64,000 nucleotides of DNA from a virus. Taxonomy: Duplodnaviria > Caudoviricetes. This document shows positions 5,724 through 58,941 of this stretch, in pieces (position 1 is the first letter of the stretch; every line of letters starts with the position of its first letter). A program made the translations under genes and the position numbers. Under the pieces are notes generated by a model that was given only the letters and a program-made list of their open reading frames with translations, was not told the DNA's origin and did no database searches. Location: the IMG/VR virus record IMGVR_UViG_3300021387_000796, positions 96,001 to 160,000 of that record. One strand, written 5' to 3'.

Positions 5724-6341
5724 ATGAGTAAAGAATTATGGTTAAAAAGAATTCGCAATTATGCTGGTTTTCTTGGTATGGTTTTACCTTGGATATCGCT
5801 CATAGGAGCATTGTTATTTAAAGGAACACAACCTTCGTGGAGTGATTTTTCAATTAGTGCGACATATTATGTAACACCTGCGCTAACGGCGATTTTAACA
5901 TCTGCTTCTATTGTTCTGATGTGTTATGATGGATACGATAAGTGGGATTCTTTTGTAACAACAATTAGTGGTGTGTTCGGTTTATGTATCGTTTTGTTTC
6001 CTTGTAAATGTAATGTGAGTTCTGATTATGTTGGTTTTTTCCAATTACCGATTAAGGTATCTAGTATCTTACATTGTACATCAGCGACAATATTTTTTAT
6101 TTTGTTAGCCTATAATGATATTTTTTTATTTACAAAGCATGAAGAATCTATGACAAGTAAAAAGAAAATTAGAAACATAGTTTATATTGTTTGTGGAATA
6201 GGAATGTTGTCAGCAATGATTCTTATGCCTTTGCCGATTCATTTTGATGCAAAGACTTGGTGGATAGAAATGATAGCATTGACATTCTTTGGGATTTCGT
6301 GGTTGACCAAAGGTGGAGCATTTAAATTTTTGAATGATTAA
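5724..6341 (+). CDS. multi-pass membrane protein (DUF998-like)
   Basis: about 6 hydrophobic segments; SISATYY and LH..SA motifs. Confidence 0.6.
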   Translation: MSKELWLKRIRNYAGFLGMVLPWISLIGALLFKGTQPSWSDFSISATYYVTPALTAILTSASIVLMCYDGYDKWDSFVTTISGVFGLCIVLFPCKCNVSSDYVGFFQLPIKVSSILHCTSATIFFILLAYNDIFLFTKHEESMTSKKKIRNIVYIVCGIGMLSAMILMPLPIHFDAKTWWIEMIALTFFGISWLTKGGAFKFLND

Positions 6342-6384
6342 AATTTAATAACAGAAACTATTTTTAGTATAATCGAGCGTAAAC

Positions 6385-6415
6385 ATTCCACCCCTTTAGG
6401 GTGGCGGTAGTTCAC
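6385..6415 (+). mobile_element. IS200/IS605-like end remnant
   Basis: CCACCCC-TTT-AGGGTGG hairpin followed by GGTAGTTCAC; no transposase nearby. Confidence 0.5.
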
Positions 6416-6541
6416 TTTCTGTTTTTTAATAAAAAAAATAATAAAGTAATTTAATTATTTTCCGATAATATAAATAACTTACATAAAAAGTCACCAAAAC
6501 TATACACTTTTGGTGACAAAATTTTTCTAGGAGGAAAAATT

Positions 6542-6739
6542 ATGAAAAAATTTATCAAATCTATTCTTTTATTTGTTGGCGCAACATTTGTATCACTTTT
6601 ATTTATGAACTTGTTTCTTAATGCATGGGATAACACAATGACTGATGAAGAAATTGTGTACTACTTGGAACAGTATCCTACAGAAGAAAAGTTGATGAAA
6701 TTGGCTGAAAAAAGAAACTTGATTGAAAAGGCTGAATAA
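6542..6739 (+). CDS. small membrane protein
   Basis: N-terminal TM segment; AGGAGG RBS. Confidence 0.6.
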   Translation: MKKFIKSILLFVGATFVSLLFMNLFLNAWDNTMTDEEIVYYLEQYPTEEKLMKLAEKRNLIEKAE

Positions 6740-6954
6740 AATCATTTCGGCAAAAAAAATGACTTTAATAAAAGGGAAGTATCAATCTTCCCTTTTATTA
6801 TATACTACACTTTGGCAAAATACTGAAAAATTGCCAAAATGTATGATAATTTTTATTGACAAAGATTTATCTTTTATATATTATTAAAAAATAATATTGA
6901 AAATAATTAACTATTTTTCATAGAAATATAACACCTTGATAGGAGAAAAATAAT

Positions 6955-7293
6955 ATGGCAAAAAATACAGTTGAAATTGATGAAGACCTTTTCATAGATT
7001 TAATTTATGAAAGAATCGATGAAGTAAAACATAATTGGGGCGATTATGGTGAAGAATTTTGGACAGATTGTATAGATTATCTTTCTGAAATCGGTTGGTT
7101 GAAACCTAATTACAATGACCCTAAATATATTGTTGATAATATTCTGATAAACGGTGAAATTTGTGCAGTAGAAGATTGTGCAGATAATTATGATGAAATC
7201 AATAAAGATTATGACGGTGATGTTGATGAATGGGCACAAGATAACGACTATTCTATATTCGGCGGTTACGTTGTAATTAACCTTGGACTTTAA
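6955..7293 (+). CDS. highly acidic protein (AACTAT class)
   Basis: D/E-rich; TAACTAT at 6908-6914; AGGAG RBS. Confidence 0.7.
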   Translation: MAKNTVEIDEDLFIDLIYERIDEVKHNWGDYGEEFWTDCIDYLSEIGWLKPNYNDPKYIVDNILINGEICAVEDCADNYDEINKDYDGDVDEWAQDNDYSIFGGYVVINLGL

Positions 7294-54737: not shown

Positions 54738-55616
54738 CTATTTATCTCCACCTTCAATTCCAAAGTGATAAGCGATTTTATTAGAATCATCGCCAAACAA
54801 CTGATTAAACATATCTCGCATAGATTTCTTTTCTGATTCATAATTCCCAAACTTTTCGTGCAACCAATCATCAAACTTGAATACATTAAAAATTGGTCTA
54901 TTCATAATCATACTCATCTGTATATCTGCAAGATTTCGAACAACTTTATGAGGAACACCTTTATCTGTGAGTGCATTAGCCATATCAGACCATGAATAAA
55001 GTTTTTCAATATTTTTCTGATAAGTTCCACTCTTATGAAAAAGTTCATTGTTTTCTATTGTGATTTGATAATCGTTATTTGAAGCAATCGGCATAAACAA
55101 CATCATGTTCAAAACATCATCATTCAGAATATCGTTACTGTAAACTTCAATCATAATATTCTTTGTTATGTCTTCTTTATTTACATAAAGTTTGGTTTCA
55201 AGATTTTTATTATCATTGAAAAATTCATTCACTACATGAATAATCGGAACAGAAAGTACAAAATCAAAATCCTTAAAATAAACTTTGTTGCTCAAAGCAT
55301 CTTTATATGAAAGTTCTTTATCAAACAAAGTTTCATTTGCAAGGTAAACTTCTGACCTAAATAATTTACAATCTACTTCAATTAAATTGTCTTTAGAATA
55401 AAGGACTTTTCTGTAATTAAAAGTATGATAATCAAAATCTTTATAAGCATTCTTTTTGAGATATTCTACATCTTTTGATTCATCAAATAGTTCTTTTGAG
55501 ATGACCATAAAACGACCATCTGTAAAAACACATTCTTTTAATTCTTTATTGTGATAAACTTTTGCATAAGTTTCGTGTTTAGAATTACAATACATGTAAT
55601 TTTTGAAATTCTTCAT
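54738..55616 (-). CDS. hypothetical protein
   Basis: 292-aa ORF with its own sigma70 promoter (55657-55662). Confidence 0.65.
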   Translation of the reverse strand: MKNFKNYMYCNSKHETYAKVYHNKELKECVFTDGRFMVISKELFDESKDVEYLKKNAYKDFDYHTFNYRKVLYSKDNLIEVDCKLFRSEVYLANETLFDKELSYKDALSNKVYFKDFDFVLSVPIIHVVNEFFNDNKNLETKLYVNKEDITKNIMIEVYSNDILNDDVLNMMLFMPIASNNDYQITIENNELFHKSGTYQKNIEKLYSWSDMANALTDKGVPHKVVRNLADIQMSMIMNRPIFNVFKFDDWLHEKFGNYESEKKSMRDMFNQLFGDDSNKIAYHFGIEGGDK

Positions 55617-55671
55617 ATATACTCCTTATGAAAAATATATCACAGAGAAATTAAATTGTCAAGAATTTTTG

Positions 55672-55830
55672 TTATTTTTCTTGCACTTCTACGAAAGAAA
55701 TTTTCGGCATGGAATAGATGAAAGTTTCTGATTGAGTCGTGACTTTATATGTTTTGGAATTTATATCTCGACTGATTATATCTTGGATTTTGATTTCTTG
55801 TTTATCTGTGAAATGAATAATTATGCTCAA
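55672..55830 (-). CDS. small protein, TTG start
   Basis: AGGAG RBS; CAACTAT at 55866-55872. Confidence 0.5.
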   Translation of the reverse strand: MSIIIHFTDKQEIKIQDIISRDINSKTYKVTTQSETFIYSMPKISFVEVQEK

Positions 55831-55872
55831 CTTTCTATCTCCTATTAAAATGGGATATGGGAAAGATAGTTG

Positions 55873-56148
55873 AAAAAAAAAATGCCACCACAAAAGGTAG
55901 CACTCGCTCGATACGGTGAAGTCGTTTAAGGACGCTCGATAGCACACATCCGCTCCGATGAGGAATTTCCTACATCTTGGTCTTAGTCGTTAGACTGCCA
56001 AATAATCTTTCTTCATTTGTTCTTATCGCACATATCTCCCTTCACGCTGAAATATGCTTGGTCAAGAAGCACCATGTCGTTTTTCCGAGATACGATAACT
56101 CACAAACTCATTTGGGTTAGGACGGTAGAGTTTGTTATTTCCAACCAT
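55873..56148 (-). ncRNA. candidate structured ncRNA (about 270 nt)
   Basis: TAACTAT at 56156-56162, GC-richer multi-hairpin body, terminator TGCTACC/GGTGGCA followed by T10. Confidence 0.5.
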
Positions 56149-56169
56149 CAAATAAATAGTTAAAAAAAA

Positions 56170-56236
56170 AGAAAACCCTCGAAAATTAATGACTTTCGTG
56201 GGAGGTCGAGTGTGTCATTAACATCAAGGGTTTTCT
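56170..56236 (-). ncRNA. long hairpin with CCUCCCAC loop, also terminator-like
   Basis: AGAAAACCCT/AGGGTTTTCT and TTAATGAC/GTCATTAA stems followed by a U run. Confidence 0.5.
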
Positions 56237-56240
56237 AAGA

Positions 56241-56311
56241 TTCTCGAAAGGCGATTCGAACGTCTACGGAGGGAGTCAAATTCCCTAATGCTACCATTAC
56301 ATCATTCGAGA
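56241..56311 (-). tRNA. tRNA-Gln(UUG)
   Basis: TCTCGAA/TTCGAGA acceptor, AGGGA-ATTTGAC-TCCCT, TTCGAAT T loop. Confidence 0.85.
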
Positions 56312-56317
56312 ATGTAA

Positions 56318-56382
56318 GGAACTCAACATTTGAAATCATCGAGGGTGGGAGGGGAAATCGATAAATTCAAATGTTTCGTTCC
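56318..56382 (-). ncRNA. second long hairpin with CCUCCCAC loop
   Basis: GGAAC/GTTCC, AACATTTGAA/TTCAAATGTT and ATCGA/TCGAT stems. Confidence 0.5.
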
Positions 56383-56399
56383 AATAATAGTTCTATATT

Positions 56400-56745
56400 T
56401 AATACGAATCAGCCACCACGCTTTTTCGCAAAGAACCCAAAAATAATTATAGTGGAAATGCTTTGGTTTTACAATCCTCATAAGGAAACACCAAAGGCTT
56501 ACATTTCACTACTAGAAGGTTTCCATCTTGTTCACCGTAAATATATTTTCGGTAGGATAGATTGGGTTGCCTACAAACTCTAAAAATTCCCACGCAACGT
56601 TCTCGTTTTAGGTGGCTGAACACTTGCGATTTCTTAACGATAACCACCGAGAAAGGTGACGGCATCACAACACTTTACCCCTTTATACGCCACTTATGGA
56701 CTAGCGTTTCCTTTCTCTTAGTCTCTCCCAACGAATTATTATTTC
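56400..56745 (-). ncRNA. candidate structured ncRNA (about 340 nt)
   Basis: nested stems TCAGCCACC/GGTGGCTGA, AACCCAA/TTGGGTT, CTTTGGT/ACCAAAG. Confidence 0.55.
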
Positions 56746-56756
56746 GCTGATAGTAG

Positions 56757-56839
56757 TAGGAGCGAAGGGAGTTGAACCCTTATCCACCAATTACTCGAAT
56801 TATAACGGACGGTTTATAAGACCGCTGAGATACGCTCCT
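56757..56839 (-). tRNA. atypical D-armless tRNA with a UAU (Ile) anticodon and long variable region
   Basis: AGGAGCG/CGCTCCT acceptor, GCGGT-CTTATAA-ACCGT, AAGGG-TTCAACT-CCCTT; only 7 nt between acceptor and anticodon stems. Confidence 0.7.
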
Positions 56840-56848
56840 ATATAAAAA

Positions 56849-56922
56849 TGATGCTAGGAAGAATCGAACTTCCGACTTTCTGCTTAGAAGGCAGATATTC
56901 TATCCAACTGAATTATAGCACC
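56849..56922 (-). tRNA. tRNA-Arg(UCU)
   Basis: full cloverleaf, TCTGC-CTTCTAA-GCAGA. Confidence 0.92.
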
Positions 56923-56929
56923 TAAATAG

Positions 56930-57017
56930 TACCGAAGATGGGATTTGAACCCATACGTCTTTTTTCAAAAACTACGAATTTTAAGTCCGTTGCGTATTCC
57001 GATTTCGCCACTTCGGC
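56930..57017 (-). tRNA. tRNA-Leu(UAA)
   Basis: GCCGAAG/CTTCGGT, ACGGA-CTTAAAA-TTCGT, long variable arm. Confidence 0.9.
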
Positions 57018-57039
57018 TTGTTTTTTTTTATCTTGATAA

Positions 57040-57068
57040 ACTATATCATAAAAAATAAAATTTGTCAA
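57040..57068 (-). promoter_or_regulatory. sigma70-like promoter of the tRNA cluster
   Basis: TTGACA-N17-TATAGT. Confidence 0.7.
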
Positions 57069-57077
57069 GAAAACTTT

Positions 57078-57605
57078 CGCTTTTCAATCAAGGAACTTTG
57101 TCTTTAACCCAAACAGACTTGATTTACTCGACTTGCGGATTTGTTTTAATAATGTTCAAACAATACCACCCAAAAACACTCTTGTATGGAGCATAGATTG
57201 ATTGAAAATCTACCTACTGATTAATCGTCAGTTGTTCTACCGTTGAACTAATGCTCCAAAAAATTGTGGGTTATACTCATTTTTCACTACAAGGTCTAGT
57301 TCTAATGATAGATTCGGATAAATGCGAAGAAGGTCTAGTTCTAATGATTGAACTAGAAAAAGGCAAAATTTCTTCGCAAACCAAATCATATCAATCCCAC
57401 TTCCAACCTTTTCTTGATGATTTCCGTGTGGGGAAACCACTCATCAAGCGTGTTTCGTATTCGGCAAAGAGAGACTTGAACTCTCAATCCTTTCGGAACT
57501 AGATTTTGAGTCTAGCGTGTTTGCCATTCCACCATTTGCCGAAGACTTGTTTTTGTTCAACGAACTCCGCAAGTCAATAATCACATCAATCGAATAACAT
57601 TTAAT
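57078..57605 (-). ncRNA. large pseudoknotted ncRNA enclosing tRNA-Leu(CAA); ROOL/GOLLD-like or new
   Basis: many 6-11 bp long-range complementary pairs; own promoter at 57612-57640. Confidence 0.65.
57461..57541 (-). tRNA. tRNA-Leu(CAA)
   Basis: CGGCAAA/TTTGCCG, CTAGA-CTCAAAA-TCTAG, GAGAG-TTCAAGT-CTCTC. Confidence 0.9.
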
Positions 57606-57636
57606 AATCAAATATTATCATAAAACAAATAAAATG

Positions 57637-58941
57637 TCAATCATTTTCTTCTTTTTCTTCAAATTTTTGACAATAAATTTGTAAACTTAACACATTAATT
57701 GCATCTATAAAAAAACTAGGAACTAATAAAAATATCAATTGTATTATATTAGCACTAATTCCCATTATTGCTCCAATTAAATCACATAATGATTTTGCCC
57801 TATCAGTCTTATTCTCAACTTTTTCTACAGAAACTCCGCTTTCCGCATAGTCCATCAATTTGGAATTAATTTCTTTATTGCGATTATTTAATTCTTCAAT
57901 TCTAATATTATTATCAGAAATTTTCTGTTGAGCAGTTGCAGTGATGCGACCTTCAATAATAACATTTTGTTTTTTCTCATTATCCCAAGCAAGAACATAT
58001 TGTGTCTGTTGAAATTTAATATCTTCATTCAATAATTCAATCTGCTTTTTGTTTTCGTTCAATTCATCTTTAAGCAAATCAAATGAAAGTTTCTTTCCCT
58101 CATTCACATTATAAGTTTTTTCTATAACATAATGACTGTCTTTATATTTTGTATAGTTTACATCGATTGAACTCAACATACTAAATCCAATAGTGCAAAT
58201 TGTTGTAAATCCAAATATAAATGCACTCAACTTGTGATTATTTCTCCACGCCTTGCGAGTCATTTGCGACCCTACTAAACCAAATGTGAGCATAGCGGTA
58301 GAAATAGCATAAGCAACAAATTTAGTCTGTAATCGCTGAAGATAGGTTCCTGTAAAATAAATGGAAAGAATGGAACAAACAATCATCAAAGCAATCATCA
58401 GTTTTGGATATACGAATTCAAACAAATTGAATTCATTCTTTTCTTTTTCAACCTTTGGTTTTTCTTCGACCTTTTTAGTTTCAACCACACTTTCTACTTT
58501 CTTTGGTTCGATGACTGTTTCAATTTTTGGTACAACAGTCTTTTCAACTTCCTTAGATTCTGCAACTTTTTCTACAGTCTTAGGTTTAAGAATTTCTTTG
58601 GTCTTTTCCGCCGACTGAATAGGATTTTTCACACGCTTAATTGGCGTAGGTTTAGAAACGACCGTTGGTTTTGTAGTCTGTGTTGAACTTGATGTGGAGG
58701 TAAATTCCTTCTCTTTCTTTACATTTAATGCTTTCTTCACAAGTCTTTCGCTCTGTTTAGAAAGTGTATAATCATAACCACCATTAGTGTTCTTCTTAGC
58801 ATTGTAAGTTTCAGAAGTCATAGACTTAAACTCATCGTAAGGAATCAATACTCCATCAGAAGTAAGGATTTCACCGTTCTTTGAATTTGGGAGATAGAAA
58901 TAAGTTACTCCTAAATTTTCATTCTTCCACTGTTTAATCAT
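57637..58941 (-). CDS. membrane protein with a low-complexity K/E/V/T linker, TM segments and a coiled coil
   Basis: three central TMs, coiled coil, C-terminal hydrophobic segment. Confidence 0.65.
   Translation of the reverse strand: MIKQWKNENLGVTYFYLPNSKNGEILTSDGVLIPYDEFKSMTSETYNAKKNTNGGYDYTLSKQSERLVKKALNVKKEKEFTSTSSSTQTTKPTVVSKPTPIKRVKNPIQSAEKTKEILKPKTVEKVAESKEVEKTVVPKIETVIEPKKVESVVETKKVEEKPKVEKEKNEFNLFEFVYPKLMIALMIVCSILSIYFTGTYLQRLQTKFVAYAISTAMLTFGLVGSQMTRKAWRNNHKLSAFIFGFTTICTIGFSMLSSIDVNYTKYKDSHYVIEKTYNVNEGKKLSFDLLKDELNENKKQIELLNEDIKFQQTQYVLAWDNEKKQNVIIEGRITATAQQKISDNNIRIEELNNRNKEINSKLMDYAESGVSVEKVENKTDRAKSLCDLIGAIMGISANIIQLIFLLVPSFFIDAINVLSLQIYCQKFEEKEEND

Follow-up and report, generated by a model that had tools for sequence, protein, structure and literature searches.

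A first-pass annotation of the phage DNA analysed here had flagged the interval 57078–57640 as a single ornate RNA of ∼530 nt, multiply pseudoknotted and with one tRNA nested inside it, and had assigned it either to a divergent branch of the large ROOL or GOLLD RNAs or to a new class. The DNA is a 64,000-nt stretch (hereafter the window) covering bases 96001–160000 of a 218-kb IMG/VR phage record, IMGVR_UViG_3300021387_000796, with ∼29% G+C. We find that the interval, with its two tRNAs and spacers, opens a phage tRNA operon and is not a single giant folded RNA. Two tRNAs are present where one had been called: tRNA-Leu(CAA) and an atypical tRNA at 57186–57258. The 201-nt spacer that separates them is a real, conserved and pseudoknotted RNA, uncatalogued in Rfam; the expectation of a new structured RNA with a pseudoknot is therefore borne out for the spacer, while that of one ∼530-nt unit is not. 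We hold with good confidence that the interval is the first cassette of a modular phage tRNA operon, and that its conserved pseudoknotted spacer is most likely released as a small stable RNA.

The spacer was compared among contigs carrying homologues of the 434-aa protein encoded upstream of the interval (L003–L018), a contig found by pattern match (L022) and an IMG/VR contig (L041) obtained by alignment of a 364-aa neighbour protein. Its fold (fold z = −3.4) consists of a bulged hairpin, P1, and three further stems, P2 to P4. P3 crosses P4, giving an H-type pseudoknot in which the strands follow the order P3-5′, P4-5′, P2 hairpin, P3-3′, P4-3′. Covariation was counted over 28 pairs in a five-sequence alignment: 13 of these pairs were changed on both sides and 99.3% of the cells were paired, a result reached by none of 500 shuffles, and slid controls collapsed. 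By stem, changes on both sides numbered five in hairpin P1, four in the P2 base, and one each in P3 and P4. The five covarying pairs of hairpin P1 span two independent replacements, one of the L011 type and one in L041. Because P3 was absent from the search model, its compensatory change owes nothing to the fitting of that model; this stem also contains an invariant U–G pair that is compatible with the tRNA strand only. Besides the tRNAs, the spacer is the sole conserved structured element of the interval.

Copies were then counted with a covariance model, R1, built from the spacer. Model R1 found one copy per genome in the window, L003, L022, L018, L011–13 and L041, with exactly one match in the whole 218-kb genome and one in the genome of L041. 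The L041 copy scored 91.8 bits and was undetected by BLASTN. In all four lineages (4/4) the spacer fills the gap from tRNA to tRNA with 0–1 nt to spare, the flanking tRNAs being Leu(CAA) and the atypical tRNA in the window, Glu and Leu(TAA) in two lineages, and Glu(TTC) and Glu(CTC) in L041. The conserved unit is the spacer itself, 100–200 nt long across lineages, with a core of ∼100–140 nt. Its single-stranded stretches are conserved more strictly than its stems (96% between the window and L018), and the flanking protein of L018 is just 61% identical to that of the window. Such strict conservation of single strands suggests sequence-specific contacts.

A variable part of the spacer is stem P2. 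It is missing in L011–13; in L018 it forms a hairpin of 10 bp with a loop of 4 nt, and in L041 a short hairpin. In the lineage of the window P2 has been lengthened by 78 nt, an extension absent from L018, L011–13 and L041. The extension holds two nested stems listed in the first-pass annotation, together with the upstream copy (57330–57348) of the 19-nt direct repeat, which was confirmed. The downstream copy (57291–57309) is the ancestral one and comprises the P2 3′ strand, the joiner and the P3 3′ strand. A clear fold combined with natural variants in which P2 is short, long or missing offers a workable handle on the roles of tRNA-cluster RNAs; these have been known since T4 RNAC and RNAD and, to our knowledge, none has an assigned function.

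Rfam was scanned at the gathering score over the window and at E ≤ 10 over the nested ranges 55500–58200, 57040–57660 and 57259–57459. In these four nested ranges the only family matched at either threshold was tRNA (RF00005), which was met twice, at 60.6 and 55.6 bits against a gathering score of 29; the sub-threshold matches were chance hits to microRNA and small nucleolar RNA models. The ROOL covariance model (RF03087) gave no match in the window at the gathering score, nor in the nested ranges at E ≤ 10, and the same was true of the GOLLD model. The one tRNA-free stretch searched by itself was the spacer, and it too matched neither, so that the proposed membership of ROOL or GOLLD finds no support at E ≤ 10.

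Other identities for the spacer were considered and rejected. Two words resembling the hammerhead core occur at its 5′ end, but they lie 4 nt apart; one of them, replaced in L011, falls within the covarying hairpin P1, and the spacer matched no ribozyme of Rfam. Neither ARAGORN with introns allowed nor the Rfam tRNA model found a hidden or intron-bearing tRNA. A 67-aa open reading frame (ORF) over the spacer is frameshifted by a 1-nt insertion or deletion in the near-identical relatives L003 and L022, which speaks against a coding reading. Paralogy with the neighbouring structured RNA at 56296–56752 was dismissed, as there was no model match and there were no common motifs. A tandem repeat finder reported nothing.

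The interval belongs to the sole tRNA island of the genome, which ARAGORN places on the minus strand, in a window whose proteins include a UvsX-like recombinase, a DNA ligase, a thymidine kinase and an RNA ligase. The upstream 434-aa ORF runs with its stop codon into promoter P1, which was scored against a sigma-70-type consensus. The −35 box and extended −10 of this promoter are retained in L003, L007 and L014, and L015–17 match this stretch at ∼80% by BLAST. A second promoter, P2, conserved in L003, L004 and L007, lies just beyond the flagged interval, marks its 3′ boundary and heads the next tRNAs (Leu-TAA, Arg and onward). The sigma-70-like promoter reported by the first-pass annotation is thus present, and its view of the interval as a non-coding, promoter-driven stretch co-transcribed with tRNAs is supported. 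The features are collected in Table 1.

Table 1. Features of the first cassette of the tRNA operon, in window coordinates.
Feature	Coordinates	Strand	Remarks
Promoter P1	57640-57612	(-)	-35 TTGACA, 17-nt spacer, extended -10; consensus scan 10/12 + TG
Precursor leader, ~62 nt	57543..57604	(-)	predicted start site; has 5' arms of long-range pairs, e.g. 57566-57575
tRNA-Leu(CAA)	57460..57542	(-)	ARAGORN; Rfam tRNA 60.6 bits (57461-57541); no CCA encoded
Spacer RNA ('C module'), 201 nt	57259..57459	(-)	conserved structured unit; fold z = -3.4
Spacer hairpin P1 (bulged)	57441-57448 with 57413-57420	(-)	
Spacer P3	57405-57409 with 57292-57296	(-)	
Spacer P4	57396-57400 with 57266-57270	(-)	
Spacer P2 base	57389-57393 with 57306-57310	(-)	
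Lineage-specific extension of spacer stem P2, 78 nt	57311..57388	(-)	two nested stems, 9 bp + 8 bp
Atypical tRNA (G33, anticodon AUU)	57186..57258	(-)	ARAGORN 'Asn(att)'; Rfam tRNA 55.6 bits (57187-57257)
Trailer, 108 nt	57078..57185	(-)	between atypical tRNA and promoter P2; has 3' arms of long-range pairs
Promoter P2	57068-57040	(-)	11/12 consensus matches + TG; look-alike of promoter P1

From this arrangement we propose that promoter P1, a sigma-70 promoter of host type, would start a polycistronic minus-strand precursor carrying, in order, the leader, tRNA-Leu(CAA), the 201-nt spacer, the atypical tRNA and the trailer. Since both tRNAs are without an encoded CCA and no more than a single nucleotide between them is left unfilled by the spacer, the ordinary tRNA-processing enzymes should dismantle this precursor: RNase P would cut at the 5′ end of each tRNA, and an RNase Z-type activity would cut after each discriminator, a step that is established for CCA-less tRNAs in Firmicutes. 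The spacer would in this way be freed as a discrete small RNA of ∼200 nt and would most likely act, by analogy with RNAC and RNAD of phage T4, as a small stable phage RNA.

The T4 RNAs are the closest precedent. RNAC (species 1, 139 nt) and RNAD (species 2, 119 nt) are small non-coding RNAs encoded within a phage tRNA cluster and, like the spacer, they abut tRNAs there, T4 rnaD beginning 1 nt after tRNA-Arg. They differ in lying at the end of the cluster, whereas the spacer is wedged between two tRNAs, and in that their accumulation has been shown, that of the spacer RNA being a prediction. When R1 was run on T4 69000–75000 with filters off, the best score was 9.2 bits and no match fell on rnaC or rnaD. 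The spacer RNA and the T4 RNAs are therefore analogues and not homologues. Bacterial tRNA-operon spacer RNAs offer a second comparison: some, such as the 3′ external transcribed spacer of E. coli leuZ, are processing by-products that persist and are active. Spacers of the leuZ type are, however, short and largely unstructured sponges that act by base pairing, unlike the covarying pseudoknotted fold of the phage spacer RNA.

Several points weigh against the released-RNA interpretation as a whole. The spacer is known from only four independent lineages; the single compensatory changes in P3 and P4 both come from L041, and the alignment behind part of the covariation count had been fitted to the model. 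Transcript ends, processing, stability of the spacer and any function in trans are predicted from the DNA. In this phage and in L022 the duplex between leader and trailer exceeds chance expectation (z ∼ −4), which leaves room for a lineage-specific role of that duplex. Finally, the apex of hairpin P1 (57413–57448) has two mutually exclusive pairings, both of which are kept in L041: one has a 4-nt bulge and an apical stem of 5 bp, the other a 7-nt bulge and an extension of 4 bp. Minimum-energy folds pick different alternatives in the window and in L018. The two pairings may constitute a switch, or may be a coincidence of one lineage.

The relatives show how readily the parts of this cassette separate. 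In L003 (∼96% identical) and L022 (98.8%), BLAST and tRNA scans recovered the layout of the window. L007 and L008 keep promoter P1, the leader and tRNA-Leu(CAA) at 76%, and a remnant of the second tRNA with the trailer at 88%, and are without the spacer. L014 keeps only promoter P1, the leader and tRNA-Leu(CAA), which are followed by an IS605-type TnpB gene, and in L015–17 promoter P1 is joined directly to a module that the window carries 860 nt farther along. In L004, tRNA-Lys, tRNA-Glu and tRNA-Leu(CAA) are followed by a 327-nt spacer that is unrelated and shows no fold signal (z = −0.32). In L018 and L011–13 the spacer lies between tRNA-Glu and tRNA-Leu(TAA), and none of the leader, atypical tRNA and trailer of the window is present; in L041 it lies between tRNA-Glu(TTC) and tRNA-Glu(CTC). 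From these comparisons the operon appears to be built from parts that are exchanged independently among related phages. What emerges is a picture of large gut and rumen phages that assemble their tRNA operons from interchangeable cassettes of promoter plus RNA. One part of such a cassette is a pseudoknotted RNA, supported by covariation and not represented in Rfam, that exactly fills the gap between two tRNAs.

Promoters P1 and P2 are near-duplicates, and the same promoter precedes different RNA modules in relatives (for example at L015 5189–5237). Because it heads different modules in different phages, copies of the promoter may serve as recombination points for the shuffling of cassettes. 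In L014 the TnpB gene (5805–7202, with OrfB_IS605 and Cas12f1-like domains) follows tRNA-Leu(CAA) directly, in place of the modules of the window.

More than 200 homologues of the upstream 434-aa protein occur in ENA/Logan metagenome assemblies from pig gut and rumen, and no IMG/VR locus was found for it. Exact-pattern scans of IMG/VR, JGI metagenomes and GTDB genomes yielded one close relative, L022, the other matches (L002, L019–L028 except L022, and L038–L040) being due to chance; a gapped pattern retrieved the L041 contig only. L029–L037 are without the tRNA island. Among the INPHARED isolate phage genomes a 621-nt query matched only at tRNA-Leu, and the spacer copies of L018 and L041 matched nothing.

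The spacer might instead act in cis, as punctuation that protects the flanking tRNAs or orders their maturation, whether by insulating folding, by blocking nucleases or by guiding processing. Its invariable position exactly between two tRNAs, with a compact pseudoknot immediately in front of the tRNA that follows, is what such a role would call for, yet other tRNA pairs of the same island are spaced by only 6 nt and need no such element, and L007/L008 and L004 manage without the spacer. The strict conservation of its single strands described above also points away from simple punctuation and towards sequence-specific contacts.

For the nuclease-blocking variant, a known motif for comparison is coremin (xrRNA-C; Dilweg et al.), an exonuclease-resistant RNA whose first hairpin has the loop YGAD or YGNNAD and is followed by an 8–10-nt spacer with an essential AACUA and then by a second local hairpin (PMC6546385, PMC10520033). 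The phage spacer resembles it in having a small hairpin, an A-rich AACUA-like spacer and a further helix, here in front of a tRNA. On inspection, the coremin features were not found: the P2 loop fits YGAD or YGNNAD in no lineage (it is 4 nt with C at position 3 in L018, has U at position 3 in L041, and is 8 nt in the window), and AACUA, which the window and L018 have, is altered in L041 and missing from L011–13. Unlike coremin, moreover, L041 carries the equivalent of the inactivating change U19A, L011–13 are without hairpin and spacer, and the downstream strand pairs upstream, in P3, in place of a second local hairpin. No coremin-like motif occurs elsewhere in the tRNA island. We regard a role in cis as possible but rather unlikely.

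A bolder form of the released-RNA proposal would have the spacer found a new class of trans-acting phage RNAs that are cut from tRNA precursors by host enzymes. Together with the atypical tRNAs and the RNA ligase, it would make the island one that manipulates host translation or counters tRNA-targeting defences, with hairpin P1 as a conformational switch. We offer this as a speculation and think it unlikely in its full form.

The remaining alternatives concern the long-range pairings that had suggested a single large RNA. All the complementary words (pairs of 11, 10, 9, 8 and 7 nt) are present as the first-pass annotation had listed them, but as helices of one RNA they fare poorly, three of them being a tRNA stem or competing with a cloverleaf. 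The pair 57187/57251 is the acceptor stem of the atypical tRNA, and the pairs 57081/57198 (T arm with trailer) and 57241/57555 (D arm with leader) are incompatible with the cloverleaf of this tRNA, because each uses its T arm or its D arm. Three others (8 bp at 57413/57441, 9 bp at 57323/57370 and 8 bp at 57334/57350) are local hairpins within the spacer. Truly long-range pairs are those of 10 bp at 57130/57566, 7 bp at 57105/57267 and one of 6 bp. A perfect inverted repeat of at least 10 nt is not unusual here, since one is found in 44% of the 563-nt windows of the genome and in 27% of shuffles. Inverted repeats of at least 8 nt number 15, against 4.1 ± 2.1 in shuffles, and 2.3% of genome windows reach 15; much of this excess is due to tRNA stems, to hairpins formed locally and to a single word that enters the count four times. 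In AT-rich DNA, tRNA stems and chance complementarity can evidently imitate an ornate fold.

Nor are the long-range closing helices conserved or covarying among the relatives. The 10-bp leader–trailer helix (H1) has one mismatch and one wobble in L003, and three mismatches and two wobbles in L007/L008, with no compensatory change among the relatives compared. The T-arm/trailer and D-arm/leader pairs have one mismatch each in L007/L008, and the former is also mismatched in L003. The 7-bp pair 57105/57267 (H4) is broken already in L022 and competes with the covarying spacer stem P4. Over four long-range helices there were 11 unpaired cells and one change on both sides, against a shuffled mean of 0.7, which is no covariation beyond chance. 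The changes were essentially one-sided. In covariation score the long-range helices did not differ from shuffled columns (239/500). Given this uncompensated decay, the deletion of 14 nt from the leader in L007 and L014, and a duplex z that falls with divergence, the closing helices would be at most a recent feature of the closest lineage of this phage.

Such a recent feature could be a lineage-specific processing stem of RNase III type, like those flanking rRNA operons, in which leader and trailer pair to excise the block of tRNA-Leu, spacer and atypical tRNA. The duplex is built of three collinear antiparallel segments (57548–57555/57171–57178, 57566–57575/57130–57139 and outer segments), and at −36.8 kcal/mol (z = −3.8) it was equalled by none of 300 shuffles; L022 gave the same result (z = −4.1). 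Neither L003 (z = −1.7) nor L007/L008 (z ∼ −1) retain the duplex, all changes being one-sided, and the leader deletion removes part of its leader arm in L007 and L014, where the arm 57566–57575 differs. Its longest uninterrupted run is 12 bp including one G–U, whereas RNase III sites usually have ∼20 bp. We consider a processing stem of this kind improbable.

Another alternative sees in the non-tRNA parts only neutral debris left by the recombination of tRNA cassettes: decayed tRNA genes, duplications and chance hairpins. Folded by itself, the trailer gives no structure signal (fold z = −0.30) and its 88% identity in L007/L008 equals that of neighbouring modules, so it is not better conserved than they are; the alternative spacer of L004 is equally featureless, L007/L008 carry a chimeric tRNA that does not fold, and both the 78-nt extension of P2 and the 19-nt repeat are lineage-specific. 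The spacer core, with 13 compensatory pairs and a 91.8-bit match in a phage beyond the reach of BLASTN, is another matter. We take the debris reading to apply to the trailer and perhaps to the leader, but not to the spacer core, and as an account of all the non-tRNA parts it is very unlikely.

Least credible, and in our view close to excluded, is the single ∼530-nt multiply pseudoknotted RNA, closed by the leader–trailer helix around one or more nested tRNAs, as a divergent ROOL/GOLLD RNA or a new large class: the minimum-free-energy fold of 57078–57605 is closed by that helix with z = −4.8, the duplex is strong in this phage and the setting is a phage tRNA cluster, but much of the fold signal can be attributed to the two tRNAs and the spacer (the atypical tRNA alone has z = −3.65), H1 decays in L003 and L007/L008, H2 and H3 need arms of a perfectly folding tRNA, H4 is broken in L022 and competes with P4 as noted, the parts separate in relatives, and no ROOL or GOLLD match was found at E ≤ 10. 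To add a third class to the giant ornate phage RNAs would have been a major discovery, but the evidence does not support one. ROOL and GOLLD are non-coding RNAs that lie near tRNA genes, often in phages or prophages, and are possibly co-transcribed with tRNAs; ROOL is one conserved unit of ∼580 nt with multistem junctions and pseudoknots (PMC5737381). The interval shares with them its place inside a phage tRNA island, a common context that does not prove membership. It differs from them in that its conserved unit is 100–200 nt with one pseudoknot and its parts separate in relatives.

The atypical tRNA that follows the spacer pairs in all four stems and forms a perfect cloverleaf. Its peculiarities are a U–A pair closing the T stem, G33 instead of U33, the anticodon AUU (with A34) and no encoded CCA. 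The changes seen in L003 and L022 yield wobble pairs only, and L003 has U32 for C32. L022 also has a normal tRNA-Asn(GTT) elsewhere, and the atypical tRNA is therefore not needed there as an Asn tRNA. It has been proposed that phage tRNAs whose anticodon loops are altered evade anticodon nucleases (PMC10264068).

In L007 and L008 (5512–5586 in each) the place of this tRNA is taken by a chimeric pseudo-tRNA whose acceptor stem is unpaired and which no longer folds (z = −0.86). Its 5′ 42 nt match the tRNA-Glu(TTC) of L018 at 41/42 positions, and its 3′ 31 nt match the atypical tRNA of the window at 28/31. Because of this make-up, the chimera points to an ancestral order of tRNA-Glu, spacer and atypical tRNA. 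The spacer of L007/L008 would then have been deleted by recombination between two similar anticodon stems.

Other unusual elements are found in the same island and its relatives. A tRNA-like element at 56757–56839 on the minus strand has a UAU anticodon loop, a D arm reduced almost to nothing and a variable region enlarged by a 24-nt insertion, and scores 36.3 bits with the Rfam model; it occupies the slot of a canonical tRNA-Ile(TAT) in L004 and L018. In L022 (1441–1532, minus strand) ARAGORN calls a 92-nt tRNA-Gln(TTG), against 74 nt in the window, which may reflect an insertion or a different call boundary. Finally, the RNA ligase gene (PF09414; 52971–53663, minus strand) is found 3.5 kb downstream from the tRNA island, to which it stays linked in most relatives, a linkage that fits a theme of tRNA repair or tRNA metabolism.

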